IMG/VR virus record: IMGVR_UViG_3300042350_003822
Coordinates: 1-64,000 of that record
From: a virus
Length of the DNA: 64,000 bases
Strand: one strand, 5' to 3'
Shown piece by piece: positions 26,247 to 43,619 of this stretch (within the stretch, counting starts at the first letter, position 1; the number at the start of each line of letters is the position of its first letter). The notes below the pieces were generated by a model. It saw nothing but the letters and a program-made list of their open reading frames with translations. It was not told where the DNA came from and did not search any database. The translations under genes and the position numbers were made by a program.

Positions 26247-28931
26247 TTAAAGTCTGCTAGTCGAATAGCAATATTGACGCCAAAACCCACCACCGTCGCA
26301 GAACGCAAAAAACGATCCGTGGTGAGGAAGCGTGGTGCCTATATCACTGCCACCGGGGAATGCAAGTGTAACGTTGTTGCCGCTGACATTTGAGATAGCA
26401 AAACCTTCCCCAGAGGCAAATCCCGTCGATGGAAACGTGATCGTAATGCCTGATGTGGTAATAAGAATGTTTGTACCGCTGTCAGCAGCTCCAAGAGTTT
26501 TTGTCGCGTCAATAACATTCTGACCACTTGAGCGAATACCGTGAGTTGCCCACGTTGGCGCGGCGCCCGAGCCGCCAGACCGTAACACTTGACCTGCAGT
26601 GCCGTAGTTAGCGCCACCAATTCCCAACTGCCCAACAGAACCAATTCTGAAACGCTCGGCAGTTGTTGTGCCGGTCGTAAAAATCATATTGTTGTCGTCG
26701 TTGTAAATTTGACTGTCGCCACCGGAAGTCGTTGTACCAGTCGCGGAGCCGATACGAACATCGCCGCCGCCAGTAAGTCGCATATCTCCCGCAAGAGTTA
26801 ATTTGTACGCTGGAGAAGTGTCCCCAATCCCGACGTTGCCCGAGCTGGTGATGCGCATTACCTCCGTACCACCTTCACTGAAAGCAATAGTGTCCGCAGC
26901 AGGGGACCACATCCCTGTGTCCGTATCGCCAGTAAACGTATGAGACGGCGTTCCGGTGGCCCCTAAGCCAGCGCTAAGGCGTGTAGTGTGGAATGCTCCC
27001 GTAGTGTTGGCAATGAATGAAGTGCCGACTGTTATAAGGGCAGAGTTGACGCTGGTACTTACATTAGCTGTACCTAAAACTGTGAGTTTAGCATTTAAGT
27101 CGGTTGTACCGATACCCAAACTACCATTCATGTAGTTGTTTGCTGTACCCGAACCATAAAACCCCCATTTGTTTGCACCAGCAGTAATTTGACTCCAAAA
27201 TCCATACACATTTGAAATAGCAGTAGCGTTAAAGGCAGTATACTGGAAAACATTACTTGGTGCGGTCGCACTAGCCCATGACGGTGTACCAGCACTAAAT
27301 GTATAAATTGCATTAACAGTTCCAGTATAACTTACTAAAGAGTCTGCTCTTGCAAAAACACCGTTAAGGTTTGTTATATTGTTTGCCGATGATACAATAG
27401 TTGGTAGGAATAACAGACCATATAATGCAGTAAGTGTTCCTGCCCCTTGCGGAGAAACTTGAGATTGCATCGTGAACATATTCTGCTGGCCAGTTTGGGT
27501 AGAATTTATCTGACCACTTAAACTTATATAACCACCAGCATCCGTAACAGTACCAGTTTGGTTGATACGGTTAGATAGGGATAGAGATCCAGTAATCGTT
27601 GTATTACCCACTGCTGCAGTAGTTACGCCAGATAGAGCCCCTGCAAACGAGCCGGTTGTTGCATTCAAAGCCCAGCGGGCCGTTGTATTACCTAAAGCAT
27701 TGCCAACAGTATTTGATGTGGGAAAAACACCTGTGGTATTTGCTCTAAAGTTTGTTGTAGTAAATGATGCAGCGTTTACAGTACCTGTATGATATGCACC
27801 TGTAGTGTTGGCAATGAATGAAGTGCCGACAGTTAACAAAGCAGAGTTTACAGATACAGAAGCATTAGCAAAACCAGTAATCGTGGTATTGCCGGCGGAG
27901 ACTGCGTTTGAAAATGTTGCTGCCCCACCACTATTTAACGTCAAGTGTGTTGTCATGACACTATTGTTGCCACCCTGAAATAATAAATCTCCGGTTGAGC
28001 GATTGTAGTTAATTCGTTTTATTCCACCAGTCTGGTCAAACGGCTGGCCAAAGCTAACAATAGAATTTGCGCCGATGTTGCCAAGGCCAATTTGGTCAGT
28101 CCCGTTGCCAGCCGCCAGTGCCTGTTGTGGAGTAGATGTTCCGATACCAACATTACCATTTGCTACGATAAAAGCAGCAGTACCAAACGTTGCGGTATTG
28201 GTCCCTACTTGTAGGGTGGTTGATACGTTAGCAAAACCAGTAATCGTGGTATTGCCGGCAGCAAGAGTGGTGATGCCGGAGACTGCGCCAGCAAAGCCTA
28301 CTGCACTTGTTGTCTTATTAAATGTGAAGCTTGAAGATCCGTTTGCCCCACCAGAGTCATTAAATAAAACTTGTGTGTTGGATCCACCTATAACCGCAGC
28401 TGCACCTACCGAACCAGTGAATCCTACTGAACCAGTGAAGCCAGTAGTTCCTTGAGGGCCCTGGGCCCCTACTGACCCCGTGAATCCAATTGGTCCCTGT
28501 GCACCTTGAGGACCGGTCGAACCAGTGAAACCAATTGGTCCTTGTGCACCCTGAGGCCCGGTTGAACCAGTAAAACCAATCGGGCCTTGTGGTCCTGTTG
28601 CACCAGTAGAACCAGTAAAGCCTGTTGTTCCTTGAGGGCCCTGGGCACCAATAGAACCTGTAAAGCCAGTAGTTCCTTGGGCACCAATAGAACCTGTAAA
28701 GCCAGTAGTTCCTTGGGCACCAATAGAACCTGTAAAGCCGGTAGTTCCTTGGGCACCGGTAGATCCAGTGAATCCCACCGAACCAGTGAAGCCAGTAGTT
28801 CCCTGAGCACCAGTAGATCCGGTGAAGCCAGTTGCACCTACTGAACCTGTGAAGCCTGTGTTTCCTTGCTCACCAACAATTATAGCTTCCCACTGAGCAG
28901 TGTTAGCGTTATATACTTTTGCTACGCCCAT
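26247..28931 (-). CDS. Collagen-like tail fibre protein (894 aa)
   Basis: About 52 Gly-X-Y triplets near the N-terminus, then fibre repeats (GNVGIGT, ERFRI). Confidence 0.85.
28400..28874 (-). repeat. Collagen Gly-X-Y repeat, including near-identical 36-nt tandem units
   Basis: [12 protein letters not shown] units; DNA unit gggcaccaatagaacctgtaaagccagtagttcctt repeated in tandem. Confidence 0.9.
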
Positions 28932-28984
28932 CTTTTATACCTTAATTCGTTTACCTGTAGAATTTTATATACCTTATTTATTTA

Positions 28985-30025
28985 CTAAAAGAACATCATT
29001 AACATATTTCCACCCGCTGTTAGAGCGGGAGAATTAGTAAAAATGACGTTTAAGTTATTGCCGCCATCTGTCGAGTTTGCGCCAACATAGAAGCGATTTG
29101 CTTCGGTTACGCCAATGTCAGTGACATTTAAGTAGTCAATACCGGAGGTAACATTAGTAATGTCGAACGTGCGACGGGTGCCTGCCGTTGCGCTGTTTAC
29201 CGTAACTATATTGCCGGCAGAACCAGTAATGCTCCATATACCAACAACCATTGTGCCTCCGGCATTATGCCTAATTGTATGAGCAACGGTCTTTGTTGAG
29301 GCAAGTTCAGTAAAGGTGTTTATTCCTCCAATACTGGTTGTAGAAATACCGGTTGTGCCTCCCATAGTCAATTTATTAAAAGAAAGCCCGCCCGCATTAA
29401 ACGCCCTTGTAGTTGTTGTATTGTTAGAAAGCAGAATATCTGCCGTGTCTTTGTTAAACGTAAGATTCGTCGTTACTTGAGTATTCCAGATCGTACTAAT
29501 ACCAGTTATTGTCCACAACCCAGACCCCATTGTTATGGTTCTGACATTGCTATTGCTTGAAGAAACAGAGTTACAAGTTACGTTATAATTATTTGCGTTA
29601 AAAGTTCCTTGTGTAATAGTTAAGACGGTTGCTGTTAACGCATCTCCAAGAGTTACTGTAATGCCAGAACCATTAATTGTTATGCTGCCAAAGCCTTTAC
29701 CCGCAGTCGTTAGCGTTCCTGTGCCGGTAAACGTCATAGCGCCAGCATAAGGAAAGGACATACCCGCAACAAGCGTGACGCTGCCGGCTACAGTGATTCC
29801 TGCAGAACCAGAGATTGTTCCGGCAAACCCAGTACAGTTGATTGACTTTGCGCCGGTATTGCCCGTAGAAATTATGCAATTGCCTGTGGACAAGTTTGTA
29901 AAAAACACGTCGTCAGCAGTGGTAGGAACCGACGCGCCGCCAGCACCACCAGAACTAGTTGACCACTTAGTCCCTGCCGTACCGTCCCAAGACGCCGAAC
30001 CGCCTACCCAATAACGGTCAGCCAT
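28985..30025 (-). CDS. Putative beta-helical adhesin-like virion protein
   Basis: RYWVGG...W.....W..SSGG.GGASVPT..DDVFF N-terminus and passenger-like T/G/N repeats. Confidence 0.55.
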   Translation of the reverse strand: MADRYWVGGSASWDGTAGTKWSTSSGGAGGASVPTTADDVFFTNLSTGNCIISTGNTGAKSINCTGFAGTISGSAGITVAGSVTLVAGMSFPYAGAMTFTGTGTLTTAGKGFGSITINGSGITVTLGDALTATVLTITQGTFNANNYNVTCNSVSSSNSNVRTITMGSGLWTITGISTIWNTQVTTNLTFNKDTADILLSNNTTTTRAFNAGGLSFNKLTMGGTTGISTTSIGGINTFTELASTKTVAHTIRHNAGGTMVVGIWSITGSAGNIVTVNSATAGTRRTFDITNVTSGIDYLNVTDIGVTEANRFYVGANSTDGGNNLNVIFTNSPALTAGGNMLMMFF

Positions 30026-30026
30026 A

Positions 30027-30266
30027 TTAGCTCTCTACAGGCTTCAGGTCAACTTGACTATCAATCTCAACTTGCTCATAAGTTATATCGTCAACTTCAA
30101 CATACTCAGGCGTTGGTGGATTCTCAACAGCAAACAACCAGTTGTTTAGACGCTCGGTCTTCATTTCTGTGATCTGTTCTTCTGTATGCGAGGAATCTTC
30201 TGGGAGATATAGAGCATCCCGAAATGTACCATATTGTGTTTCAAATTCAAAATCAATCTTAATCAT
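30027..30266 (-). CDS. Hypothetical acidic protein (79 aa)
   Basis: GAGGAG RBS; tightly packed in the operon. Confidence 0.6.
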   Translation of the reverse strand: MIKIDFEFETQYGTFRDALYLPEDSSHTEEQITEMKTERLNNWLFAVENPPTPEYVEVDDITYEQVEIDSQVDLKPVES

Positions 30267-30278
30267 ATTTTACTCCTC

Positions 30279-31391
30279 TTATGCTTGTGTCGTTACAGCT
30301 ATGACGTCCCAAAAAACATCAGTAGTGTTATAGATGCAACCAACATATGTTATCTTTGTTGCAACCGTGGTGGTTGGCAAAGTAACACCTACTGCTCTAA
30401 ACGCCCCGCTACTCGTGGTCCAAGTAATACCTCTTCCGGTGCCATTATCCTCAAATCTCAATATTAATCTTTGGCCATCTACCGGTGTGCCGCTGGGTGT
30501 TAAGAGTGTGATTGCGCCGGTTAAACCAAAGGCATTGAGAACATCAGTAGTGTCTCCATTTGGTGTTATGTTACCTGAAGTTACACCAGCAGAGACAACT
30601 CTAGGATTTATTCTTTTGTTTGTTAATGTTTGTGTGCCGTTTAAATTAACAAAGGTCCCTTCAGCTCCGAGCACAGAAGTATCCACCCAAAGAACATCTG
30701 TTGCAACTGGAGCAGTGTTGGAGATTTCGACACCGGTTTCGCCTTGAGATCCCGTAAACCCATTAGACCCAGTAAAGCCTGTTGCACCACGTGACCCCGT
30801 GAATCCGATTGGACCTTGAGATCCTGTAAACCCAATCGAACCAGTAAAGCCAGTTGTTCCTTGTGGTCCTTGAGCACCAATAGACCCAGTAAAGCCAATA
30901 GGTCCTTGAGCACCTACTGAACCTGTAAAGCCTGTTGATCCTGTATATCCTGGATTGTTTGACCAGTATGCAACAGATCCGTTTGAGATTAATGCCTGGC
31001 CGGCAGTACCAATTGAACCATTTGCTATGATGCCTCCGGTTAAAGTGATGTTACCATTTGCAAGAGTATTACCCTGAATAAACAGCCGCGCCGAACTTGT
31101 GTTGGCAGAGCCAATAGCAACGTTACCACTAAATTCGGCTAAGCGAATATTACCAACATCGAATACTTCGATTGATGGAATCCCGGAAATATCATTGACC
31201 GAAAATATTGTTCCGGTCAATGAATCCACAATACTGAATAGCTGCCCACTTTGGCCACTGAACGATAGTGTGCCTAGAGTGTCGAGGAAAGTTGCAGTAA
31301 TACTATTCGCAAATGCGCTATTCGATGAGCTAAAGCTAATATTAGGCGCCTGCAGACCATTCTTGGTCAGAAATCTTTTATCATTTGCCAA
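30279..31391 (-). CDS. Collagen-like fibre protein (370 aa), TTG start
   Basis: About 24 Gly-X-Y triplets with GFTGS; TQTLTNK motif; C-terminal beta domain; GGGAGA RBS. Confidence 0.8.
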   Translation of the reverse strand: MANDKRFLTKNGLQAPNISFSSSNSAFANSITATFLDTLGTLSFSGQSGQLFSIVDSLTGTIFSVNDISGIPSIEVFDVGNIRLAEFSGNVAIGSANTSSARLFIQGNTLANGNITLTGGIIANGSIGTAGQALISNGSVAYWSNNPGYTGSTGFTGSVGAQGPIGFTGSIGAQGPQGTTGFTGSIGFTGSQGPIGFTGSRGATGFTGSNGFTGSQGETGVEISNTAPVATDVLWVDTSVLGAEGTFVNLNGTQTLTNKRINPRVVSAGVTSGNITPNGDTTDVLNAFGLTGAITLLTPSGTPVDGQRLILRFEDNGTGRGITWTTSSGAFRAVGVTLPTTTVATKITYVGCIYNTTDVFWDVIAVTTQA

Positions 31392-31420
31392 CGTTCAATC
31401 TCCCAATTGGCGATATGTTT

Positions 31421-31428
31421 TATTTATG
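31421..31428 (-). promoter_or_regulatory. Probable late promoter (CATAAATA)
   Basis: NATAAATA box in intergenic gap upstream of 31391. Confidence 0.6.
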
Positions 31429-31455
31429 TTAACTTTGTGAGTCTGGCATATGTTA

Positions 31456-32145
31456 TTAGATTCCGAACCTTCCTCTTACAGCATTAAAGTTCTGTGAGAC
31501 TTCTGCTGCTGTGAGTGTTCTGTTGTAAATTGATAAAATTGCAAAATCACCATCTAAGTTTTGCGCTGGATCAAATCCAGCTCCAGGCGCATCTGCTTCT
31601 TGTCCAATAATTAAATATCCACCCGATGTAGGTCCAGAACCTGCATTTATAGTTTGTGTTCCAACATATACACCATTCATGTAATATAAACTAACACCTG
31701 TTGTTCTTGTTCTAACCCACGTAAAATTACACCACACATCTTTCATGTCTGGAACAGTGACTTGATATCTGTTACCCAAATCATGTGGGACAATGATGGT
31801 AGAGCTATCAGTATATAACAAATATGTGTTATCGCCAGCGACGCTATATGTAAATGGGGTTTGGCTGGCGCCAGCAAAATTTGACCTAAACCAACAACTA
31901 AACGATATATCATCAGTAGGAATACTATAATTATCATTCATTATGTATTGAGTGGTTTGATTATTTGAAAAAGTAAAATAACCCGCACTGTTAAAAGCAG
32001 GGCCGCCATATATAGTAAGATTTGTGTTATTACCACTTACATCATTCCATGTAGTACCACTACCAGGATACGACTTTACGTTAGCCGCATCCAGACACAG
32101 TACTAGACCATTACGAACGATACTAGGACCATGACCTAAACTCAT
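31456..32145 (-). CDS. LamG / concanavalin A-like lectin domain protein
   Basis: GLVLCLDAAN.KSYPGSGTTW.D.SGN, Y.NG, IYNR.LTA.EV.QNF.A.RGRFG. Confidence 0.85.
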   Translation of the reverse strand: MSLGHGPSIVRNGLVLCLDAANVKSYPGSGTTWNDVSGNNTNLTIYGGPAFNSAGYFTFSNNQTTQYIMNDNYSIPTDDISFSCWFRSNFAGASQTPFTYSVAGDNTYLLYTDSSTIIVPHDLGNRYQVTVPDMKDVWCNFTWVRTRTTGVSLYYMNGVYVGTQTINAGSGPTSGGYLIIGQEADAPGAGFDPAQNLDGDFAILSIYNRTLTAAEVSQNFNAVRGRFGI

Positions 32146-32876
32146 ACACCGTACCTTCCACGAAGGGCATCAAAGTTCTGGGAGACTTCTGCTGCTGTGA
32201 GTGCTCTGTTGTATATTTTTATATTTCCAATTTTTCCATTTAAATATCCCGAGTAACTGGCCTGTCCATGAAGTGCTCCAAAATCAGTTTGACCATCTGT
32301 AAAGCTATTAGATACGTTTCCAGTCCCTATTAATGAGCCGTTGAGATACAAAGTTTCTGCATTGGATGCAGAACGAACTAAAACTATTTGATACCATCTT
32401 TCATTGGACATTAAAGAAGAGACATTAATATTTAAAGAACCAGTAGTTCCTCCGCCGCCTCTACTAACGACAATAGTATTTGGAGTAAATGAAGTATTAT
32501 TTGCCGATAAAACTCCAAATTCTATTTGACCAGCTCCTGTTCCTGTTCCCCCAGCAAATAACCAGGCACATTTGTTAAAACCTCCAAAGTTTCCAGTTAT
32601 GCTTGTAAAATTTACCCAAATTTCATAAGAAAATAATTGAGTTCCAGAAAGAGGAGAAGGTGATGAGATGCTAGAATAATCATTAGTGCCATCAAAAACA
32701 ATTGAACCCATATCTGCACTAGTATAAGTCGGGCCACCTGTAAGTGTGCCATTTTTTCCATTGCCACTTAGATCGGTCCATGTAGTACCACTACCAGGAT
32801 ATGACTTTACATTAGCCGCATCCAGACACAGGATTAAACCACTTCGAACTATACTTGTATTATAGGCAATTGCCAT
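32142..32876 (-). CDS. LamG / concanavalin A-like lectin domain protein (tandem paralogue)
   Basis: Same terminal motifs; FDGTNDY, WYQIV, LYLNG, IYNRAL. Confidence 0.85.
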   Translation of the reverse strand: MAIAYNTSIVRSGLILCLDAANVKSYPGSGTTWTDLSGNGKNGTLTGGPTYTSADMGSIVFDGTNDYSSISSPSPLSGTQLFSYEIWVNFTSITGNFGGFNKCAWLFAGGTGTGAGQIEFGVLSANNTSFTPNTIVVSRGGGGTTGSLNINVSSLMSNERWYQIVLVRSASNAETLYLNGSLIGTGNVSNSFTDGQTDFGALHGQASYSGYLNGKIGNIKIYNRALTAAEVSQNFDALRGRYGV

Positions 32877-32884
32877 TACTCACC

Positions 32885-33448
32885 TCACGCTGTAATTAAT
32901 TCATACGACGCTTTAAATGTCGTAGATGTTGCAGATGCAGGTGTAATTCGTATTCTTGTATTAGCAGCTGAAATATCACAATCAACGGAGAACAATGAAC
33001 TGCCTGTCAACAGAGACGCAAATTCAGTCGCGATTGCCGTGGTTGTATTGCATACGACGAGCATCTTAGTTGTATGAATAACACCAGAGGATACTGCTTG
33101 GATTACAAACTCACCCGTATTATAAGTTGCTGTAGGATATTGAATGAGGGTAGTTTGTGTAGTCGCGGTTGTAGTTGTTGTTGCAGTATCACGGACTGAG
33201 ATACCATCGAGATTAATGTCGCCAGTAACGCTTATTGTACCATTGGCTACAATAGATCCTACACTTAGAGAGACAAGATTCGCACCAACTTCAAATGAGA
33301 CAGTTCCGTTTGATGAGTATACTTTTTGATCGGTAAGATTGACAGCAAGCTCCCCAGCATCAATAAAGGCTGTGTTACCGGAGTTAGTCGTGTTAGGAGT
33401 GCGACCAGATATAGTGGTACGCTTGAGCTGAATCTTATTATTAGCCAT
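32885..33448 (-). CDS. Virion fibre / adaptor protein with IQLKR...GELA N-terminal attachment domain
   Basis: MANNKIQLKRT...P.......GELAVN..D.K.Y; start set at ATG 33448 after GGAGAG. Confidence 0.65.
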   Translation of the reverse strand: MANNKIQLKRTTISGRTPNTTNSGNTAFIDAGELAVNLTDQKVYSSNGTVSFEVGANLVSLSVGSIVANGTISVTGDINLDGISVRDTATTTTTATTQTTLIQYPTATYNTGEFVIQAVSSGVIHTTKMLVVCNTTTAIATEFASLLTGSSLFSVDCDISAANTRIRITPASATSTTFKASYELITA

Positions 33449-33493
33449 ATGGCTCTCCAAGGCAGATATATATCTTATAGGCCAACTATATAG

Positions 33494-33521
33494 TTGACTT
33501 TATTACAATTGTATTTATAAT
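33494..33521 (+). promoter_or_regulatory. Sigma70-type promoter of the glycosyltransferase operon
   Basis: TTGACT-N16-TATAAT, ending 6 nt before ATG 33528. Confidence 0.75.
33512..33519 (-). promoter_or_regulatory. Late promoter TATAAATA for the downstream fibre genes, overlapping the opposite-strand -10 box
   Basis: Exact consensus on the minus strand. Confidence 0.75.
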
Positions 33522-33527
33522 GGGAAC

Positions 33528-35576
33528 ATGATGAAGATTGCTTTTATTGACACACTTGGTTTGACATATGATGGATCCACTCTCTCGAAGAGAGGTCTCG
33601 GTGGTTCAGAGTCAGCCGTCATCCGCATGTCCGAAGAACTAGCCAAGATCGGTTTCGACGTCACAGTCTACAACGACTGTACTTCTGATGATTCCAGGCC
33701 TGGTATCTACAATGATGTAAAATACTCGCCAGTTGAGAATGCCAAAACACATTGTCTGAAATACGATGTAGTTGTGGTTTCTCGTTCGATTAAGCCAATT
33801 GCAGAAGACTGGGGTATCGTGCTCGAAGCAAAGCATGTTTGTCTATGGATGCACGACACGTTTTGCGAAGGCGACGATCAGATTGAGTATCTGATTAACG
33901 TTGGCAAGCTCAACGAGATCTTCACACTCTCTGACTGGCATACTGGCTATGTCACTCATTGTGACCATGGTTTCCGCCGTAACTATGATGTTCTGAAGAA
34001 CCACATCTTCATGACCCGTAATGGTATCAATGCTACTCCCAAAGAGTGGGTCAATATCCGCGATAAGGATCCTAACCTTTTTGTCTTCAATGCTTCTGTT
34101 ACAAAGGGAATGATTCCTCTTGTCAAGCAGATCTGGCCTCAAGTGAAACGTAATATTCCTGAAGCTAAGCTGAAGATAATCGGCGGCTTCTATAAGTTCC
34201 GTGAAGCAGCAGGACCAGATCAGCAGCAGAAAGACTGGGCTGAGCTGCAGCTGCAGTATGGTGGAGACATCGAATTTACTGGTGTAATTACTCAGCAAGA
34301 GATCTCAGATATCCTCCGCAAAGCCTCCTACATGATCTATCCTGTAGGGTTCCCAGAGACGTTTGGCATCTCTACACTTGAGGCACTTGCTCATAATGTA
34401 CCACTGATTACTTGTCAGTTCGGAGCTCTTGAAGAGACTGCAATCGATCTGGCATCATGGAAGATTAAGTATCCTGTCGAACCAAACTGGGCTATGCAAT
34501 GGCTGAACCAGGAACAACAGGTTAACATCTTTGTTAACAAGGTTATAGAAGCATACAATACTCCTTATCTGCATCAACAGAAGATGTATGCTTGTAATCA
34601 GGTCAAGGACATCAGCACATGGGATACGGTTGCTCTTCAGTGGAAACAACATCTGTATAAGAAGCTCAGTGAGTTCTTGCCCATTGATGAATACCGTAAG
34701 GTATCTAAGATCAACGATAGGGTACACAAGGTCTTCGGTCGTCGCTGGACGAATCCAGAAGAGTTAGCTGTTCCTCGTCAGACATGGCAGAATAATATTC
34801 ACGTTATCACACCTGTCTACAACGCAGAGAAGTACATCGAGCGCTGCATTCGGTCAGTAGCTCAGCAAGATTATTTTGACTATCGTATGGTTATTACCGA
34901 TGATGCATCGACTGACAATACTGTTCAAGTAGCGTTAGATACAATCAACTCTCTACCCGAGCGCATTAGATATAAGTTTAAGCTAGTACATAATGACGAA
35001 AACCTCGGAGCTGTGCACAACCAGGTAATGGCAATCATAGACGAAGAGTGTGAATCGGGTATTGTTATGCTACTCGACGGGGACGATTGGTTGGTAAACG
35101 ATCCTAACATCTTCCACATGTACAACAATCTGTACAATGAGGGCGCAGAGTTTACTTATGGGTCATGTTGGTCTCTTGCTGATAACATTCCCTTGGTTGC
35201 ACAAGAGTATCCACCAGAGGTCAAGGCTAACAAGTCATATCGTGACTATAAGTTCAACTGGAACATGCCTTATACACATCTGCGTACGTTCAAACAGTAT
35301 ATGATGAGCAATTATTTGGCCACGCGTGGTAACCATGCTTTTAGAGACGAGAACGGCTGGTTGAAGGCTGGTGGTGATACTGCTATATTCTACGCTATGA
35401 TTGAGGAAGCTAATCCCGACAACGTTGTCTGCGTAACAGATATCGTGTATAACTACAATGATCTCAATCCACTGAACGACTACAAAGTAAACTCAGAAGA
35501 GCAGACCAAGACTGCTAACAGAGTGCTCGCGGCCTCTCCCTTTCCTCCTGGACAATATGACCTGAGACCCCTATGA
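33528..35576 (+). CDS. Bifunctional glycosyltransferase: GT-B (GT4-like) fused to GT-A (GT2-like)
   Basis: GLGGSE, WMHD, ETFGISTLEA (GT4-type E-x7-E); then VITPVYNAEKYIERCIRSV, DDASTD, LDGDD (GT2 DxD). Confidence 0.9.
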   Translation: MMKIAFIDTLGLTYDGSTLSKRGLGGSESAVIRMSEELAKIGFDVTVYNDCTSDDSRPGIYNDVKYSPVENAKTHCLKYDVVVVSRSIKPIAEDWGIVLEAKHVCLWMHDTFCEGDDQIEYLINVGKLNEIFTLSDWHTGYVTHCDHGFRRNYDVLKNHIFMTRNGINATPKEWVNIRDKDPNLFVFNASVTKGMIPLVKQIWPQVKRNIPEAKLKIIGGFYKFREAAGPDQQQKDWAELQLQYGGDIEFTGVITQQEISDILRKASYMIYPVGFPETFGISTLEALAHNVPLITCQFGALEETAIDLASWKIKYPVEPNWAMQWLNQEQQVNIFVNKVIEAYNTPYLHQQKMYACNQVKDISTWDTVALQWKQHLYKKLSEFLPIDEYRKVSKINDRVHKVFGRRWTNPEELAVPRQTWQNNIHVITPVYNAEKYIERCIRSVAQQDYFDYRMVITDDASTDNTVQVALDTINSLPERIRYKFKLVHNDENLGAVHNQVMAIIDEECESGIVMLLDGDDWLVNDPNIFHMYNNLYNEGAEFTYGSCWSLADNIPLVAQEYPPEVKANKSYRDYKFNWNMPYTHLRTFKQYMMSNYLATRGNHAFRDENGWLKAGGDTAIFYAMIEEANPDNVVCVTDIVYNYNDLNPLNDYKVNSEEQTKTANRVLAASPFPPGQYDLRPL

Positions 35577-36862
35577 TAAAAATTCTAATTGCTATTCCAA
35601 CTGCTCGTTATATTGAGCCCGACACTTTCAAGTCAATCTACGACCTTGACATTCCAGAAGGTTATCATGTCGACTTTCAGTACTTCTACGGATACAGAGT
35701 CGATCAAGTTCGTAACCTAATTGCAGACTGGGTCGTACGTGGATTTGATTATCTGTTTGCTGTTGATCACGACGTCACGTTTGCACCCGACACTCTTAGG
35801 AAGATGCTCGATCATAACAAAGATCTCGTAACTGGTGTCTATCGTCAGAGGCTAGAACCACAGGCGATCGAGGTGTACGATTTAAACCAGCATCGGATGA
35901 GCGTCGACCAACTCTATGGAGGTCAATCTGACCTTGTTCAAATAGGAGGATGTGGGTTTGGCTGTGTTCTTGTGAAGAAAAAGGTCATGACTGGTATTGG
36001 TTACCCACAGTTTGAATATCACGTAGCCTTAGATCACGCTAATACTGTCAGCGAAGATACAGATTTCTGTCGTAAGGCGATGCAAAAAGGATTCACATTA
36101 TGGTGTGATCGTACTATCTTATGTGGACATATTGGTTCGACTACGATGCAAGTATCTATCCCGGCAACGAATCCAATTGAACGCAGGTTACGCGAGTTGC
36201 ACGATCAAAGACTATTGCCAAAAGATCATATTGACTATTTGTATGATCTCCGGGATGATGGATTGAGACCAAAAGTGATCTATGATATCGGTGCTTGTGT
36301 GCTCCATTGGACTAACGAAGCGAGGCAAGTCTGGCCCGCAGCCGAATTCATTCCATTTGAAGCTATGAAAGAAGTAGATTTCCTTTATCGCGAAGCAGGG
36401 TTTAAGAACTTCGCTAGCGGTTGCTTATTATCTGATACTATAGAAGAAATTGAGTTCTACGAGAACCTCGAGCATCCGGGTGGTAATTCTATGTACAGGG
36501 AAAACGAAGAACTATCGCCGCTAGCTAGTGTGTTGTTTCCAGACAATAAAAAAGTCAAGCGTAAGACAAATACACTCGACGAAATTGTTAAGCTGAATCA
36601 ACTCCCGCTACCAGATCTTATTAAGATGGATATTCAAGGGGCTGAGTTGAAAGCGCTCAAAGGAGCTGTGGAGACGCTTAAGAGTTGTAACCATCTTATT
36701 CTCGAACTTCAACACAAAGACTACAATTTAGGCGCACCCAAATCACAAGAGGTTATTGAGTATCTCGAATCAATTGGATTTGTCTTGCATGGGGGTAAAA
36801 TGTTTTGTGGAAGCGATAAGGGAGTTGATGGCGACTATCACTTCATACGTCAGAGGACTTAG
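35573..36862 (+). CDS. GT2-like glycosyltransferase fused to FkbM-family SAM methyltransferase
   Basis: ILIAIPT, VDHD (DxD), GCGFGCVLV, SED..FC; then IYDIGA, TLD, LIKMDIQGAEL..LKGA; ATGA-coupled to the upstream GT. Confidence 0.88.
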   Translation: MIKILIAIPTARYIEPDTFKSIYDLDIPEGYHVDFQYFYGYRVDQVRNLIADWVVRGFDYLFAVDHDVTFAPDTLRKMLDHNKDLVTGVYRQRLEPQAIEVYDLNQHRMSVDQLYGGQSDLVQIGGCGFGCVLVKKKVMTGIGYPQFEYHVALDHANTVSEDTDFCRKAMQKGFTLWCDRTILCGHIGSTTMQVSIPATNPIERRLRELHDQRLLPKDHIDYLYDLRDDGLRPKVIYDIGACVLHWTNEARQVWPAAEFIPFEAMKEVDFLYREAGFKNFASGCLLSDTIEEIEFYENLEHPGGNSMYRENEELSPLASVLFPDNKKVKRKTNTLDEIVKLNQLPLPDLIKMDIQGAELKALKGAVETLKSCNHLILELQHKDYNLGAPKSQEVIEYLESIGFVLHGGKMFCGSDKGVDGDYHFIRQRT

Positions 36863-37037
36863 TTCTCTTCTTCAGACGTTCTAAGTCTTGTAGAGCTTTT
36901 TCATGCTCGACTTGTAGGCTGGTGAGACTCTTTTCGAGGACCGCCAGCCTTGTTTCTAGTAGAACATTCTTACTTACAGTATCATGTAGATTCGATGTCA
37001 GTCTACTAATATATTCATTAACAAATTCAGCTTCCAT
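36843..37037 (-). CDS. Small coiled-coil protein (64 aa)
   Basis: Heptad pattern; follows fibre gene; convergent 20-nt overlap with the GT-MTase gene. Confidence 0.65.
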   Translation of the reverse strand: MEAEFVNEYISRLTSNLHDTVSKNVLLETRLAVLEKSLTSLQVEHEKALQDLERLKKRTKSSDV

Positions 37038-37039
37038 TA

Positions 37040-38458
37040 TTAAAATGTTCCCCCATCAAGGGTTTCGTAAATAAGAGCCGTGCCATTTGACTGTAAAACT
37101 TTACCATCAGTACCAAGAGCTAACTTTGCAAAACCATTGGTAGAATTAGCAACTAGAATATCTTGGCTAGTATATGATGCTAGTCCAGTACCACCAGATG
37201 TACCAGCAAGTGGTGTGGAAAGACTTAAAGTGTTTGCTGTCATACTTACAGCAACTGTGGCGTTAGCTGTCAGTGTAACTGCAGTCGAGTTAGACACAAG
37301 ACCACCAGATGTTAGGAACGCCTGTAGAGTGCCCTGTGTGTAACTCGTGTTAGCTGTATCAACTGTTGTTGAAGGTTCGACCGTCAGACCCGAGTACAGC
37401 TTATAGATGCCACTGTCAGATGCATCACGGAACATACCTGTGAACTTGGCGCCTGTTGCACCATACTGACCGTAAAAACCAATATCAATTGAGTCTGTAG
37501 AAACGTTACCGTTTGCAAGCTCGATCATCGAGTCTTTAACGGTGAGGTTAACTGTGTCAATGGTTGTCAGCGTACCAGATACTGTCAGGTTACCTGAAAG
37601 CGAAAGGTCTGTAATAGAAAGCGCACTGTTAACATGAACACCAGTAGCATTGACAGTGAGTGTGGATCCAGCTAGGACACCTACTGTATCTGCTGCAACT
37701 GTAATACCGTTCGCCGTACCAACATGCACACCTGTTGCGTTAGCTACAAGACCGCTACCAGCAGTAACAAACACACCAGTTGAGTTTGAAACAAGGCCAC
37801 CGTTCGTACCTGCAACGACCGCAATAGTCGCTGCACCACCTTCAGACGAAGATGATCCGGAAATACCGTTACCAGCAGCAATTGTGGCTACGTAGTTACC
37901 AGATGTACCAGTTCCAAGAGCAACATCACCAGTCAGCTGAGAAGTAGCAACAACTAGGTTTGCACTATTGACATGAATACCGGTTGCATTAACTGTTAGA
38001 GTTGAGCCAGTGTCGACGCTGAAGGCTACTTGGTTATTTGTAACAGTTGTTGTCACACCATTTGCAGCAGCAAATGTTAGTGTTTCTCCAGTGTTAAACG
38101 TATCGGTGCCAGTTTCACCAGCAATTGTAAATGAGCTCGGTGCTGGAGATGCCCAATAAGCAACTGTTCCATTAGAAACCAGTACTTGTCCTACAGTACC
38201 GGTAGTACCATTAGCTGTAAGCGTTGTTACGATAGCATTCGATGTAATGATTCTGTCGATGCCAGAGGTCGCGTTGGCCACCAGGGCCTGATTTGCTGTT
38301 AGTGTACCTGGGATACGCCCGCCCGCAATAGGAATAACGCTACTACCTGAACCAATAAACAGTACATTTCCGTTACCAGAGAAAGCTAGCTCACCATTAG
38401 CCAATGATGCGGGGGTAGCTGTGGCCAGTGATCTTTTAATCTGAATCAGATTAGCCAT
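37040..38458 (-). CDS. Fibre-like virion protein (472 aa)
   Basis: IQIKRS...P..L..GELA N-terminus, GNLTVSGT.TT...V.D..I.L shaft module, LDGGTF C-terminus. Confidence 0.75.
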   Translation of the reverse strand: MANLIQIKRSLATATPASLANGELAFSGNGNVLFIGSGSSVIPIAGGRIPGTLTANQALVANATSGIDRIITSNAIVTTLTANGTTGTVGQVLVSNGTVAYWASPAPSSFTIAGETGTDTFNTGETLTFAAANGVTTTVTNNQVAFSVDTGSTLTVNATGIHVNSANLVVATSQLTGDVALGTGTSGNYVATIAAGNGISGSSSSEGGAATIAVVAGTNGGLVSNSTGVFVTAGSGLVANATGVHVGTANGITVAADTVGVLAGSTLTVNATGVHVNSALSITDLSLSGNLTVSGTLTTIDTVNLTVKDSMIELANGNVSTDSIDIGFYGQYGATGAKFTGMFRDASDSGIYKLYSGLTVEPSTTVDTANTSYTQGTLQAFLTSGGLVSNSTAVTLTANATVAVSMTANTLSLSTPLAGTSGGTGLASYTSQDILVANSTNGFAKLALGTDGKVLQSNGTALIYETLDGGTF

Positions 38459-38468
38459 TTTTTATCCT

Positions 38469-38735
38469 TTAAAAAGTTCCGCCATCTAAGGCGCCGAGGT
38501 CTTCGATTGCGAGTAGTCTAACTTCGTATTTATCTAAACTCGCATTGTAGACTAGGGTTGCTCCCTCTACAACGTTCACCTCAGCCACATCAGCAATGTC
38601 TTCGATGGATCGGATCTCACTTATTTGATTCTTAAGAGTCACGCCAGGAGCAGATGAGCTCAGTCGGCCATCACTCCTCGCAACTGCTATTATGCTGTTA
38701 CTGATTCTTCCTGTCAGAGAAGCTCTTAGTGCCAT
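38469..38735 (-). CDS. Small virion protein ending LDGGTF
   Basis: I.D+.DV......GATLVYN....KY motif; C-terminus identical to that of the next gene. Confidence 0.65.
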   Translation of the reverse strand: MALRASLTGRISNSIIAVARSDGRLSSSAPGVTLKNQISEIRSIEDIADVAEVNVVEGATLVYNASLDKYEVRLLAIEDLGALDGGTF

Positions 38736-38737
38736 CG

Positions 38738-39067
38738 TTACCTCGTTACTTGAGGAGTTACTGTGACAATGCCTTCGACCAATCTCGATACAGTACCGGC
38801 AGCGTCAGTTAGCTCACAATCGTATACATATCTTCCCGGAGTAACATTACCACTCACAGCAGCGTTCATCGAGAGAGTAACAACGCCCGTGACGTTAGCA
38901 ATAGATACACTGAAGGCATGAGCGTTGGTTGACGTATAGTGCTTACGCATCTGCGCAGCACCGGTGTAACCAGTCAGATCAACTGCATCGCCGGCGTCAT
39001 CTGTGACGTCGATAGATGTAGAGTAGCTAGCTCCCTGATCGATTACAATGTTTGCTTTGATTGCCAT
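38738..39067 (-). CDS. Conserved small Ig-like (BppU-N-like) virion protein
   Basis: NIVIDQGA, DLTGYT..AQMRK, GRYVYD, R.VEG.VTVTP.VTR. Confidence 0.7.
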   Translation of the reverse strand: MAIKANIVIDQGASYSTSIDVTDDAGDAVDLTGYTGAAQMRKHYTSTNAHAFSVSIANVTGVVTLSMNAAVSGNVTPGRYVYDCELTDAAGTVSRLVEGIVTVTPQVTR

Positions 39068-39079
39068 TAGTATTTAACC

Positions 39080-39784
39080 TTATGGTTCTTCGCCAGATTG
39101 AGTTGTTGATGATGCAGACAATTGCATTGTAGCAGAAGCAAGAACGGTCGATGTATCTGAAGTAAGAGCTAATTGTAGAGTAAAACTAAATATTTTACTT
39201 CTTGAACGTTGGGATGAGTTTGATGCCGCTGTTACACTCCAAAGACGATTGGAAGACATGGATAACCACGTATTTGTTGCAGCGCTGCCGGCATCGGGTG
39301 TTCCACTTATAGGAACTGCTTGACATGACCACAGAGAAACATCGCCGCCTGCTGACAACCAATTTTGGACAGCTATGTATCCAGAAGTGCCTGAAGGGTT
39401 GGCATAGTCAGTGCCGTCGATAATCATTGTGTTATCGTCGCCGTTAGCATTAGCTAGCCCATACAATGCTCTATCATTTCTAATCTCTAGGGCTGTAAGA
39501 GCAGAACAAGCTACGTCATTATATGCCAATGCTGTAGCAGAAAGAGTGTGTGCGCTTAGGGATGCAGTTCCACTCGGGCTCGGTACAACAAACCCATTAA
39601 ACTGACTTAGTTGTAGTGGATCGCCGCCAGTACCTGCACCAATCGCATTAAATGGAGATGTCGCGGGCACAATTCCTCCGCCTTGTCTATATGCAAAGAA
39701 GCTAGTAGATAAACCATATCCCTCGGCATTGAATGCCGTTCTCACAGAACTAAAACTTGCGGGGTTTGAAATAGTTGTTGCCAC
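39080..39784 (-). CDS. Hypothetical virion protein, candidate fibre-tip adhesin
   Basis: Directly downstream of the S74-bearing collagen fibre; Ser/Ala-rich beta protein with several Trp. Confidence 0.5.
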   Translation of the reverse strand: MATTISNPASFSSVRTAFNAEGYGLSTSFFAYRQGGGIVPATSPFNAIGAGTGGDPLQLSQFNGFVVPSPSGTASLSAHTLSATALAYNDVACSALTALEIRNDRALYGLANANGDDNTMIIDGTDYANPSGTSGYIAVQNWLSAGGDVSLWSCQAVPISGTPDAGSAATNTWLSMSSNRLWSVTAASNSSQRSRSKIFSFTLQLALTSDTSTVLASATMQLSASSTTQSGEEP

Positions 39785-41373
39785 TATTTGTTCTCCAGCG
39801 CATCAACTTTAACACTCAACTCTTTAACCGCTTCAATAAGAACAGCAACCAGTCTTGCATATGCAACCATCTTATAATCGCCGTCCGCGCTTATTGCAAT
39901 AAGCTCTGGCAACTGCTTTTCGACTTGTTGAGCAAGAACCCCTAGTTCAACTCTATCTGCACTGTATCCGAAGAGTTCCTGACCAAGCTCGTTCCAGGTA
40001 TACTTAATACCGTCTAAACCATTAATAATCTCTAGAGCGTTATCGATCTTACCTATAACATCTTTTAGTGTAGCATCAGAGGCAATAACAAAGTCAGCAG
40101 CCTGCATATTACCAACAGCTGTAAGGTTTCCACCTGTTGTCAGAGATGCGGTACTTGCAAATCCTGTTTGGTTACGAAATTGAATAGTTCCTGTGTGATC
40201 GACATAGTTTATACCAGAAGCACTCAAATTTATTTCACCGGTAGCGGTAATAGTTCCGAACGTGACATCGCTACCTACGTTCAGAGTTTGATTTGCACCA
40301 GGACCAGCCGAACCGGTAAATCCTATTGGACCTTGGGCACCTTGGGGTCCCTGAGGACCGGCTGGTCCTTGGGCGCCCTGCGCACCTTGTGCTCCTTGTG
40401 CTCCTAGGGAACCAGTAAATCCAGTTGGTCCTTGAGCCCCCTGAGGACCTTGAGCCCCCTGAAGACCTTGAGCCCCCTGAGGACCTTGGGGACCAAGTGA
40501 TCCCGTATCCCCACGTGATCCTGTAAAGCCAATGGGGCCCTGTGCACCCTGAGGACCGGGTGGTCCTTGAATACCTTGGGCACCTTGTGGTCCCTGTGCA
40601 CCAGTAGAACCTTGCGATCCTGTAAACCCAACGGGGCCCTGAGGGCCGGGTGGGCCTGCGGATCCTTGAGGACCTTGAATACCCTGGGGACCCTGTGCAC
40701 CAGTAGAACCTTGTGATCCAGTAAAGCCAATGGGGCCTTGAGGACCCTGAGGACCGGCTGGTCCTTGAATACCTTGAGCACCTTGTGGTCCTTGCGATCC
40801 TTGTGTCCCTTGAGGACCCACTGAACCTGTGAAGCCAATCGGGCCTTGTGGTCCTTGAGCACCTACAGATCCGGTAAAGCCAACAGATCCTTGAGGACCG
40901 GTAGAACCTTGTAGTCCTTGCGGTCCTTGTGCACCTAGGGAACCAGTAAATCCTGTAGTACCGCGCGATCCAGTAAATCCTATAGGACCCTGAGGTCCAG
41001 TGGGCCCAACTGCTGTCGATGCCGATCCTGTAAAACCTGTTGATCCTTGAGGGCCTGTTGGACCAACTGATCCTGTAAAACCTGTTTCCCCCTGAGCGCC
41101 TACAGGACCCACATATGTGGTCCAATATAGACCAGCAGCATTAGAAGCCAGAACCTGGCCGACTGTTCCAATTTCCCCATTAGCAACGATACCGCCGCTA
41201 AAGATAGCATTGCCCGATACGTTGACAGCAGCGGCAGTGATCGTGTTAGTAACGCTAAGGTTTGCCCCTACCGCTACGTTTGCAGTCATAGAAACATCAT
41301 GCCCGAAGATCGAGTTGGTGCCGGCACCGACAACAGCAATACCATTTTCTACTTTAAATCTTGTATTAGCCAT
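39784..41373 (-). CDS. Collagen-like fibre (529 aa) with C-terminal S74 chaperone
   Basis: About 89 Gly-X-Y triplets; SD.TLK...[30 protein letters not shown]. Confidence 0.88.
40300..41109 (-). repeat. Long collagen Gly-X-Y repeat (GPQ, GAQ, GFTGS)
   Basis: Continuous triplets with one short interruption (GSASTAVG). Confidence 0.92.
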
Positions 41374-41384
41374 TTGTTCCTACT

Positions 41385-43619
41385 TTACTTAATCAGATGT
41401 GCAACAATTTTGACCGCTGTGTTGTTCACTAGCTGAGCCATTGTAATTTCGACGTTTGCGTTATTGACTGCTGCGGTGAATGTACCGAGAGGAGCTGTTG
41501 TGTTTGCCCCACCTGAGGCTGGAGGAGAAGCCACAACGCCATAGACAGCAACATATGCGTTCGTACCGTCATGAGCGACAACCATTTCAGCAATCTGGTT
41601 GTTACCAGCATTTGTTGCTTGAACCATCAGCTTACCTGTTCTGTAAGTAGTCTTAGGGAAGCTATAGATTAGCCTTGGGGACGCTGTTGATCCGATATCG
41701 CCATTAGCAACTACATCAATGACATAGTCTGTGTTGATTGTTACATTACCACCAACCGAAACGTTACCTACGAGGTTTGATGTGGATCCTACTCTTAATG
41801 TTGTACCCACATTAGCTGAACCAGCAACGTTGGCAAAACCACCGATAGTAGCATTCGTACCAACAGTAAGAGTGGTTCCTACGTTTGCGTATGACGAAGC
41901 ATCCACAAACCCTGTAATTGTTGTGTTGCCTGTTGCAAGTGTATTAGCAATTGTAACAGCACCATTAACTGCTAGAGTGCTCCTTAGATTAGTAGCTCCT
42001 CCAACGTTAGCTGTGGATGATACATTAATGAAACCAGTGACTGTTGTGTTACCAAGTGAAGCGGTGTTAGCCACAATCAGCTGACCGTTTGCTACAACAT
42101 TAGCCCGGAAGGATGCCACACCACCAACGTTTGCTGTGCTCGTTACATTAATAAATCCACCTATTGACGCATCGGTACCAACACCCAGTGTAGTTCCTAC
42201 GTTTGCTGTAGCCGATATATTAATGAAACCTGTAACAGATGTATTGCCAGTCGCGAGCGTATTGGCAATTGTAACGGCACCATTAACCGCTAGTGTGCTT
42301 CTTAGATTTGTTGCCCCACCAACATTAGCTGTGGACGACACATTAATGAAACCAGTGACTGTTGTGTTACCAAGTGAAGCAGTATTAGCTACCGTGAGCT
42401 GACCGTTTGCTACGACATCAGAACGGAAGGATGCAATGCCACCAACATTAGCTGTGGATGATACGTTGATAAAGCCTGTAACGGTTGAGTTGCCAACACT
42501 AATTGTGTTGGCTACCGTGAGCTGACCGTTTGCTACGACATCAGAACGGAAATTAGCAACGCCGCCGACATTAGCTGTAGACGATACGTTGATGAAGCCC
42601 GTGAGTGTAGTGTTACCCCCGGCAATCGTTGTTCCCACCTGCAAAGAACCAGCAACGTTTGCAGAAGATGAAACGTTAATAAAGCCCGTTACGGTAGTGT
42701 TACCTGTTGCAAGCGTATTAGCAATTGTTGTTGCGCCGTTTGCAATAAACGTCCCACCTACACGAGCGTTGCTCGATACGTTTGCTGTTCCTGTAACACC
42801 AACCGTAGCATCGGGGGCAGTCGTTCCCACACCAAGTCTGTTATTAGTTGCATCTACAAATACAGTGCCTGAGTCAAAGTTAACATTACCGGCGATTGTG
42901 TGCACGCCAGTGCCTGTAAAATTGACATTACCAGAAACGTTTGCAGTTCCCACAACAGCAAGCGATGCATCCGGAGTAATAGTATTAACCCCTACTCTAT
43001 TGTTGGTTGCATCTACAAATACTGTACCTGAGTCGAAGTTAACGTTACCGGCGATTGTGTGACTAATGCCCGAGATAGTAACGTTAGCAGACATGACAGC
43101 ATTAGCCGTGATCGTCACTAAATTGCCCGCAAGTGTCGTGTTGGATGTTGTTCCGTTACCACTGATGGCAAGCACTGTAATGTTAGAGTTAGACTTGAAT
43201 GACTGAGTGTTCGATGTCACAGTAACAACTGTCGCATTTGCAATGACATTAGATGTAATGTTCAATTGCGTGCCGTTGATGAAAACGTTTGCGCCAGTAG
43301 CTGCAATGTTGGCTGTGAAGGTAGTGTTAGAAGCAACGTTTACCGAAGCTCCTGTGAATAAAGCATTGGAAGTAATGTTTAGATTAGCCGCAGTGCCTGT
43401 GTTTCCCCCACGAAGCGCGGTTTCCGCCACAAGTGTGTTTGCAGTAAAGCCACCGTATAGTCTCGCATTACGCTGAGCTGCTGTTGTACCCGTATTCGCA
43501 AAGGTAGCATTAGCAGTGATTACTTCTGTCGATAAGGCATCAAGCAACTGGTTGGTACGGATGACCCACGTACCAAACGTTTCTGTAGTTGTGTCAACAT
43601 TAGCTACATATCTAGCCAT
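41385..43619 (-). CDS. Repetitive fibre / structural protein (744 aa)
   Basis: N-terminal TF..W...TNQL baseplate-attachment-like motif; repeated GNTTVTGFINVSSTANVGG units. Confidence 0.78.
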   Translation of the reverse strand: MARYVANVDTTTETFGTWVIRTNQLLDALSTEVITANATFANTGTTAAQRNARLYGGFTANTLVAETALRGGNTGTAANLNITSNALFTGASVNVASNTTFTANIAATGANVFINGTQLNITSNVIANATVVTVTSNTQSFKSNSNITVLAISGNGTTSNTTLAGNLVTITANAVMSANVTISGISHTIAGNVNFDSGTVFVDATNNRVGVNTITPDASLAVVGTANVSGNVNFTGTGVHTIAGNVNFDSGTVFVDATNNRLGVGTTAPDATVGVTGTANVSSNARVGGTFIANGATTIANTLATGNTTVTGFINVSSSANVAGSLQVGTTIAGGNTTLTGFINVSSTANVGGVANFRSDVVANGQLTVANTISVGNSTVTGFINVSSTANVGGIASFRSDVVANGQLTVANTASLGNTTVTGFINVSSTANVGGATNLRSTLAVNGAVTIANTLATGNTSVTGFINISATANVGTTLGVGTDASIGGFINVTSTANVGGVASFRANVVANGQLIVANTASLGNTTVTGFINVSSTANVGGATNLRSTLAVNGAVTIANTLATGNTTITGFVDASSYANVGTTLTVGTNATIGGFANVAGSANVGTTLRVGSTSNLVGNVSVGGNVTINTDYVIDVVANGDIGSTASPRLIYSFPKTTYRTGKLMVQATNAGNNQIAEMVVAHDGTNAYVAVYGVVASPPASGGANTTAPLGTFTAAVNNANVEITMAQLVNNTAVKIVAHLIK
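41900..42710 (-). repeat. Imperfect ~28-34 aa tandem repeats (GNTTVTGFINVSSTANVGG...)
   Basis: About 8 copies visible in translation, with recognisable DNA-level duplication. Confidence 0.8.

Follow-up and report, generated by a model that had tools for sequence, protein, structure and literature searches.

The closest characterized system to the locus described here appears to be SgtA with BclA3 of Clostridioides difficile, in which a GT-A glycosyltransferase (GT) encoded beside bclA3 modifies Thr of the collagen repeats with O-linked N-acetylglucosamine (O-GlcNAc) and can act on Ser as well (PMC7157674). The present locus lies in a stretch of 64,000 nucleotides (nt; hereafter the window), i.e., positions 1 to 64,000 of the virus record IMGVR_UViG_3300042350_003822, an IMG/VR entry of 80,966 bp with an estimated completeness of 47%, and combines three collagen-like fibre proteins of 894, 370 and 529 amino acids (aa), which are punctuated by the pentapeptide GFTGS, with a cassette of glycosyltransferase and methyltransferase domains. 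As in BclA3/SgtA and in Bacillus BclA, a hydroxyproline-free, hydroxyl-rich Gly-X-Y region is accompanied by a GT gene adjoining the collagen gene, and the methylated sugars carried by BclA glycans find a parallel in the FkbM methyltransferase domain of the window. Nevertheless, the systems differ in several respects. The BclA3 repeat is GPT, has no aromatic residue and accepts the sugar on Thr at Y, whereas an aromatic-x-Gly-Ser element with Ser at X is found here, and BclA3 resides on the spore surface and has a BclA C-terminal domain, whereas the window encodes phage fibres with an S74 chaperone. Moreover, SgtA features tetratricopeptide (TPR) repeats, while neither TPR nor BclA-C domains were detected here by Pfam, and its place is taken by a four-domain GT-B/GT-A/GT-A/methyltransferase cassette.

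Dedicated collagen-glycosylating enzymes are likewise represented by LH3, COLGALT1 and mimivirus L230, and such a function is here proposed from sequence; the GT-A fold of the 429-aa cassette protein aligns structurally with LH3 and COLGALT1, as it does with many other GT-A enzymes. In those three cases the acceptor is hydroxylysine at Y, whereas the window tracts contain 0 Lys in 167 triplets, and no lysyl hydroxylase is fused to the window GTs, the only 2-oxoglutarate (2OG) oxygenase of the record belonging to PF13640 and being encoded 16 kb away. In the cuticle collagen of Riftia pachyptila, galactosylated Thr at Y reportedly replaces hydroxyproline and stabilizes the triple helix, but this is an animal extracellular collagen without an aromatic element, and its enzymes are unrelated or not known. 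The system of the serine-rich repeat (SRR) adhesins resembles the window at the level of fold or family only, by cytoplasmic soluble enzymes which act on Ser of a repetitive fibre, with a GT-B (GtfA/GtfB) initiating and a GT-A (GalT1) extending the glycan; its substrate is the SRR region instead of collagen, and neither a GtfB-like partner nor an accessory Sec system is present here. Pelagimyophages and cyanomyophages belong to the same phage supergroup as the window phage and also feature GT genes among their fibre genes, and those in the tail-fibre hypervariable region of pelagimyophages, mainly GT8, were read as modifiers of host lipopolysaccharide (LPS; PMC7029224). In contrast to the window, neither cassette nor motif arrays occurred in the five cultured relatives tested, the capsid proteins of which are 64-72% identical to that of the window. 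Glycosylation of virions by enzymes of the virus itself is known in few systems, among them mycobacteriophage capsids and tails, chloroviruses and mimivirus fibrils, and to our knowledge no acceptor rule exists for phage fibres.

All three fibre genes are located on the minus strand. The 894-aa protein (26247-28931; Pfam Collagen PF01391, E 3e-22) contains its Gly-X-Y tract at aa 20-178 (about nt 28398-28874), the 370-aa protein (30279-31391; likewise PF01391) at aa 148-222 (about nt 30726-30950) and the 529-aa protein (39784-41373; Pfam Collagen, E 4e-40) at aa 89-359 (aa 89-118 and 123-359, about nt 40297-41109), which corresponds to 53, 25 and 10 + 79 triplets, and PF01391 scores of 40-136 bits were obtained for the three proteins versus a gathering cut-off of 27.2. 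The 529-aa protein additionally carries a C-terminal Peptidase_S74 intramolecular chaperone (aa 432-491, about nt 39901-40080, minus strand; PF13884, E 2e-11), and this predicted trimerization chaperone is consistent with the formation of trimers. A first-pass annotation of the window had counted 13 GFTGS in the 894-aa protein, seven and one GYTGS in the 370-aa protein and 11 in the 529-aa protein, and a recount returned exactly these numbers. Its statements on composition were borne out as well: every Phe of the three tracts is part of the motif, Lys is absent, Pro occurs almost only at X (45 at X versus two at Y in the 167 triplets), and both codons and spacing vary. The first Gly is encoded by four different codons, Phe by two, Thr by four, the second Gly by three and Ser by four, the flanking residues differ and the motif recurs every 2-12 triplets, and the variation of codons at every motif position implies that conservation acts at the protein level. 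The DNA pattern GGN TTY ACN GGN TCN was matched 31 times in the 80,966-bp record, always on the coding strand of the three fibre genes, while a reversed control pattern gave 0 matches in the whole record, and only about 2.7 copies of GFTGS would be expected by independence from the tract composition versus the 31 observed. Besides GFT-GSx, the tracts are built of GPQ and GAQ repeats; Ser is found at X 40 times, of which 32 are in the motif, and Thr at Y 60 times (36% of the 167 triplets). Some copies are recent tandem duplicates, as a 36-nt unit is repeated 3.2 times at 98% identity and units of 45 and 99 nt were found in addition. A feature which had escaped the first-pass annotation is the Y residue directly before the motif, being Ile, Thr or Val in 30 of 32 copies. 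The literature search on GFTGS and GYTGS found no link to collagen or phages.

The cassette is composed of a GT-B domain, a GT-A domain, a second GT-A fold and an FkbM methyltransferase, distributed over two plus-strand genes between the minus-strand fibre genes. The first gene encodes a 682-aa GT-B + GT-A fusion (33528-35576; Pfam Glycos_transf_1, GT4-like, at about aa 179-309 and Glycos_transf_2 at aa 424-560), and the second a 429-aa protein combining an N-terminal predicted GT-A fold with the C-terminal FkbM methyltransferase (35573-36862; Pfam Methyltransf_21, E 1e-15, and TIGR01444), which overlaps the stop of the fusion gene by 4 nt, so that the two genes are taken to form one operon. 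A sigma-70-like promoter (TTGACT-16-TATAAT, 33494-33521, plus strand), assigned by consensus match only (11/12 positions), ends 6 nt upstream of the GT start codon inside a 67-bp divergent intergenic region. Sequence matches of the 682-aa protein in the PDB were GT-A enzymes, including GalT1 of the Fap1 pathway (5hea, E 3e-8), and the nearest named families of its GT2 domain in NCBIfam were TuaG, EpsE and WcaA, all with scores far under the family cut-offs. For the N-terminal approximately 200 aa of the 429-aa protein, sequence profiles stayed below threshold. Its AlphaFold model (predicted local distance difference test, pLDDT, 82) gave as top Foldseek matches the A197 GT of Sulfolobus turreted icosahedral virus (STIV), chondroitin polymerase (K4CP), LH3, COLGALT1 and polypeptide N-acetylgalactosaminyltransferases (ppGalNAc-Ts), with E values from 7e-9 to 2e-6, and D65 and D67, candidates for the acidic DxD-type motif, are invariant in 14 homologues. 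The N-terminal half of this protein is thus modelled as a GT-A fold and is a candidate glycosyltransferase. No transmembrane segment was found in the two cassette proteins, in contrast to the membrane-embedded, O-antigen-modifying GTs of the Gtr type, their maximal Kyte-Doolittle hydropathies in 19-residue windows being 1.06 and 1.15, and the enzymes are predicted to be soluble.

The GT fusion has 154 relatives in viral contigs, but was not found among cultured phages, where the best match was 26% identical. A homologue of the 429-aa gene accompanies the fusion in all of 79 loci retrieved via fusion homologues, and in several other phages the cassette genes are fused into one open reading frame (ORF) of 1115-1580 aa. 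Fused ORFs of this kind are located at G030:C1:45404-50143, G056:C1:216651-219995 and G080:C1:9677-13075, and in G030 the GT-B domain is duplicated, which results in five catalytic domains in one protein.

The distribution of motif and cassette was compared between two samples of viral collagens. The motif-selected set originated from a scan for GFTGSxGFTGS which matched more than 120 viral contigs and included 44 searchable records of at least 25 kb, while the 35 records of the motif-blind control were picked by 14 consecutive GGN codons at 9-nt spacing only; fusion homologues were counted if of full length and with E below 1e-100. The full-length GT fusion (48-79% identity) was present in 26/44 motif-selected records versus 1/35 controls (Fisher p = 4e-8), most records being fragments in which absence of the cassette is weak evidence. 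Within the loci themselves, the fusion was found in 36/120 motif-selected cases versus 1/118 controls (Fisher p = 3e-11). Among the 35 controls, motif arrays are confined to G056, the sole positive record, and the two motif-rich loci of the motif-blind sample, L151 (G056) and L226 (G080), are exactly those whose records carry the fusion. Conversely, 64 of the 79 loci retrieved via the fusion contain collagen, and at least three motifs were counted in 61 of these 64; no cassette locus with full collagen genes of another type was found among the loci examined. The adjacency of collagen and cassette was observed in 61 of the 64 related loci and in three different gene contexts. Hence the suspicion of the first-pass annotation that the motif is connected to the neighbouring GTs gained support, as motif collagens are not equally common without these GTs, whereas its choice of Thr at Y and Ser at X as acceptors stood only in part, Thr being just the majority residue at its position and the core consisting of the aromatic residue and Gly-Ser.

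For the statistics leading to this core, only tracts were used in which no open frame at the same position was longer than the collagen frame. In the 79 GT-fusion loci, Gly-Ser follows 2971/3000 aromatic X residues, and in the loci and records with the cassette 2689/2699, with Ala occurring only once; single copies do not amount to independent events. The aromatic residue and the subsequent Gly-Ser are thereby about 99-99.6% invariant across cassette-bearing phages. In the 79 loci, Thr occupies the Y position following the aromatic residue in 74% of the cases; the remainder is made up of Ser, Val, Asn, Ala, Asp, Trp and His, and Ile occurs elsewhere among carriers. The jumbo phage G030 features GF[V/I/N]GSQ 161 times, another locus features GYWGS, and in the relatives, too, the motif is mostly preceded by Ile, Thr or Val. 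At the conserved Ser position, both codon families are in use (TCN 2710, AGY 271), and Ala, Thr and Pro, which are one nucleotide change away from TCN and common at other X positions, are yet essentially absent. In the motif-blind viral collagens, Ser follows only 29% of the aromatic X residues, and among cassette-free viral collagens there is a GFTG[A/S] class in which Ala reaches about 60%. Members of this class are the viral loci L034, L087, L094 and L127, where 40-60% of the aromatic triplets are followed by Ala and whose records lack the GT fusion; at L125, a different aromatic collagen is paired with a distant GT-B gene (26% identical). Thr at Y is about equally common in cassette-free viral collagens (28%) and those with cassette (35%), and thus Thr is not what tracks the cassette. 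The conserved core can accordingly be written as G-[F/Y]-x-G-S, of which GFTGS appears to be the version of the window phage, and the Ser seems to be kept by selection at the amino-acid level in carriers. To judge by the sequences, the hydroxyproline-free collagen-like fibre proteins bearing this signature form a class of their own, which is found in uncultured T4-like and jumbo phages from aquatic habitats.

The pair of motif and cassette does not simply follow the capsid gene. Whereas the carriers G001 and G040 possess capsid proteins 72% and 70% identical to that of the window, identity drops to 39% for the jumbo phage G030 (353 kb) and to 37% for the jumbo phage G056 (292 kb), and the five cultured relatives with capsids close to that of the window have neither element. 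Five uncultured relatives picked via the gp6-like baseplate gene showed neither cassette nor motif arrays, and a search for relatives via the 191-aa neighbour gene yielded only contigs already known as cassette carriers, with no cassette-loss relative among them. Motif collagens and cassette are the only elements which G030 has in common with the window in a 32-kb region. G056 shares with it the fibre module, i.e., LamG proteins and p370-like, p191-like and p472-like parts, and its collagen genes directly adjoin the cassette and run in the opposite direction, as in the window. This disagreement with the capsid gene points to joint transfer or joint loss of motif collagens and cassette, and the distribution of the pair is partly, though not wholly, that of one lineage.

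Motif, position-specific conservation, enzyme folds, co-occurrence and adjacency are direct observations. We favour, with a probability of roughly one half, the reading that G-[F/Y]-x-G-S is a recognition and acceptor motif for O-glycosylation of the fibres by the cassette. We infer that the enzymes act on the fibres and do so at the motif, as well as the identity of the acceptor residue. With regard to the latter, Ser at X is more likely to be the acceptor than Thr at Y, since the aromatic residue and Gly-Ser are near-invariant while Thr is replaceable. The cassette would be produced in the cytoplasm and would recognize the aromatic-x-Gly-Ser element on the fibre chains, where the invariant Ser at X, and perhaps also the frequent Thr at Y, would receive the first sugar of an O-linked glycan from one of the GTs. 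The remaining GT domains would lengthen the glycan and the FkbM domain would methylate a sugar. The exposed aromatic ring would serve as a recognition handle and could also stack against the sugar, and the glycan might stabilize or shield the Pro-poor, hydroxyproline-free triple helix or take part in host binding. Tentatively, and with less assurance than the reading as such, the system may represent a previously undescribed O-glycosylation sequon on the collagen triple helix which is read by a phage GT-B/GT-A/GT-A/methyltransferase assembly line.

Several observations weigh against the glycosylation reading. The cassette was missing in 18/44 motif-selected records, most of them fragments of 11-31% completeness with arrays running to the contig end, and was likewise missing from the available part of G008 (116 kb, 64% complete, 46-49 motifs) and from the complete genome G028, which has 5-7 scattered motifs and a capsid 61% identical to that of the window. 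G028 and G041 carry other GT2 genes, and GT2 genes are common anyway, being present in 14/35 collagen-bearing control records, for which reason the presence of any GT2 was rejected as a weak discriminator. Furthermore, the co-occurrence is partly confounded by shared ancestry and by transfer of the whole fibre module, as in G056, and the Ile, Thr or Val before the motif also fits a sugar-free packing between chains.

The last point leads to the possibility, considered unlikely but the strongest of the rivals, that [Ile/Thr/Val]-Gly-[Phe/Tyr]-x-Gly-Ser is solely a structural clasp which packs the chains, sets their register or bundles the hydroxyproline-free helix, with the cassette, if working on fibres at all, acting elsewhere, e.g., on the many Thr at Y. 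In such a geometry, the Y residue of one chain would touch the X residue in the next triplet of a neighbour chain, comparable to Lys-Gly-Asp/Glu pairs. The beta-branched residue before the motif, which predominates in the window and in the relatives, and the rings placed every 2-12 triplets would suit this arrangement, and aromatic residues are known to promote the self-association of collagen peptides. The GFTG[A/S] class in viruses without cassette implies that the aromatic element can exist independently, and Thr at Y, which makes up 36% of the window triplets, is a proven acceptor in BclA3. A clasp leaves unexplained, though, that in carriers Ser is never replaced by Thr or Pro and just once by Ala, which is frequent in cassette-free collagens, and that motif class and cassette moved jointly across capsid lineages; besides, Thr at Y is about as common where the cassette is missing. 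A neutral origin, in which a founder unit with GFTGS was amplified by slippage or recombination without a function of its own, is disfavoured and regarded as very improbable. It would account for the tandem duplications of 36, 45 and 99 nt described above, but synonymous codons differ at each motif position, flanks and spacing vary, both Ser codon families are used, and the core is about 99% kept over thousands of copies, while the GT proteins themselves are only 48-81% identical.

It is also conceivable, although improbable, that the cassette alters the host envelope (LPS or exopolysaccharide, as in superinfection exclusion) or another substrate, and that the motif is a mere marker of a mobile fibre module. 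This corresponds to the published interpretation for related phages (PMC7029224), and the sigma-70-like promoter suggests expression by the host polymerase, independent of the late fibre genes. TuaG, EpsE and WcaA, the nearest, if far below the cut-offs, named families of the GT2 domain, are polysaccharide enzymes, and the whole fibre module common to G056 and the window would allow for hitch-hiking. The absence of membrane segments, unlike in Gtr-type modifiers, speaks against it, as do G030, where only cassette and motif collagens are shared, and the cassette loci, in which no complete collagen gene of a different type was encountered; nor would this reading account for the strictness of Ser in carriers. 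The data fit a modification of the host surface less well than a sequon on the fibres.

If the sequon on the fibres is real, abundant uncultured aquatic T4-like and jumbo phages would carry fibres ringed with methyl-capped glycans at regular intervals. These glycans would replace hydroxyproline as helix stabilizer, a third route of triple-helix stabilization besides hydroxyproline and glycosylated Thr or hydroxylysine, and could shape host recognition or protect the fibres. The GTs in the host-recognition region of abundant aquatic myophages, now taken as host modifiers, would have to be read anew. Moreover, motif and cassette would offer a simple, transplantable pair of tag and enzymes for the site-specific glycosylation of recombinant bacterial collagens. 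As the strict Ser occurs only where the cassette is present, the hypothesis is directly testable with three genes.

A further enzyme was considered as a partner of the cassette. The 189-aa 2OG-Fe(II) oxygenase of the prolyl-4-hydroxylase-like family PF13640 (17350-17919, minus strand) is encoded in the structural module of the window, and a homologue directly adjoins the cassette in G080; in G001 and G039 the distance between the two is 0.8-2.5 kb. As the carriers G040, G030 and G056 do not possess the oxygenase, it was rejected as an obligatory third partner. It may be an optional accessory collagen hydroxylase, perhaps acting on X-position Pro, and its membership in the system is uncertain.

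Some searches and controls were set aside. A tblastn search with the 529-aa protein returned mostly matches to the S74 domain due to masking of the collagen by the low-complexity filter, and the collagens of Roseobacter phage CRP-114 proved to be of the GPT/GPQ type without aromatic residues. The C-terminal domain of the 370-aa protein (aa 223-370, 30279-30725, minus strand; TLTNKRINPRV...WDVIAVTTQA) is a mobile module, which is 78-91% identical in fibre proteins of other phages with GKD, GPT or GPQ collagen and no aromatics (homologues P0009-P0014, P0017 and P0032). It was rejected as a within-lineage control, being mobile and found mostly in contigs below 47 kb with Lys-rich collagens. The scan of bacterial genomes for GFTGSxGFTGS resulted in 120 hits (loci L429-L548), of which 109 had no collagen tract in a verified frame and 11 were true collagen loci. 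Many of the rejected tracts arise when other repeat proteins are read out of frame or on the opposite strand, and the reverse complement of the pattern reads, by our own derivation, [D/E]-P-V-[K/N]-P. Such opposite-strand readings are a likely source of false bacterial hits and a trap for pattern-based collagen surveys. The only motif-rich bacterial locus, L441, contains 77 motifs on a 201-kb contig binned as Cellvibrionaceae and carries the cassette; this contig is probably a mis-binned phage genome.

The structural module of the window is T4-like and includes genes for the major head protein, the portal, the sheath, the baseplate wedge proteins and the large terminase. With respect to the capsid protein, Stenotrophomonas phage DLP6 shares 72% identity with the window, and values of 63-67% were obtained for myophages of Methylophilales, Pelagibacter, Sinorhizobium and Synechococcus. 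When the whole region was searched at the nucleotide level in a set of 50,697 phage records, no match was returned. Two adjacent Laminin_G_3 proteins with a concanavalin-like lectin fold (31456-32876, minus strand) are encoded between the GT operon and the 370-aa collagen gene, and three Laminin_G_3 genes occupy the same relative place in G056. Within about 6 kb of a cassette homologue, L247:8725-12243 (minus strand) encodes a 1173-aa Gly/Asn-rich protein with GNAGNPGNNG-type repeats, which fits the Gly-x-x pattern, yet is not collagen-like. Finally, a non-collagen repeat, (A/L)[10 protein letters not shown](A/I)NVS(S/T)TL, is common to the 1776-aa (19013-24343), 894-aa (26247-28931) and 744-aa (41385-43619) fibre proteins, all of them encoded on the minus strand.

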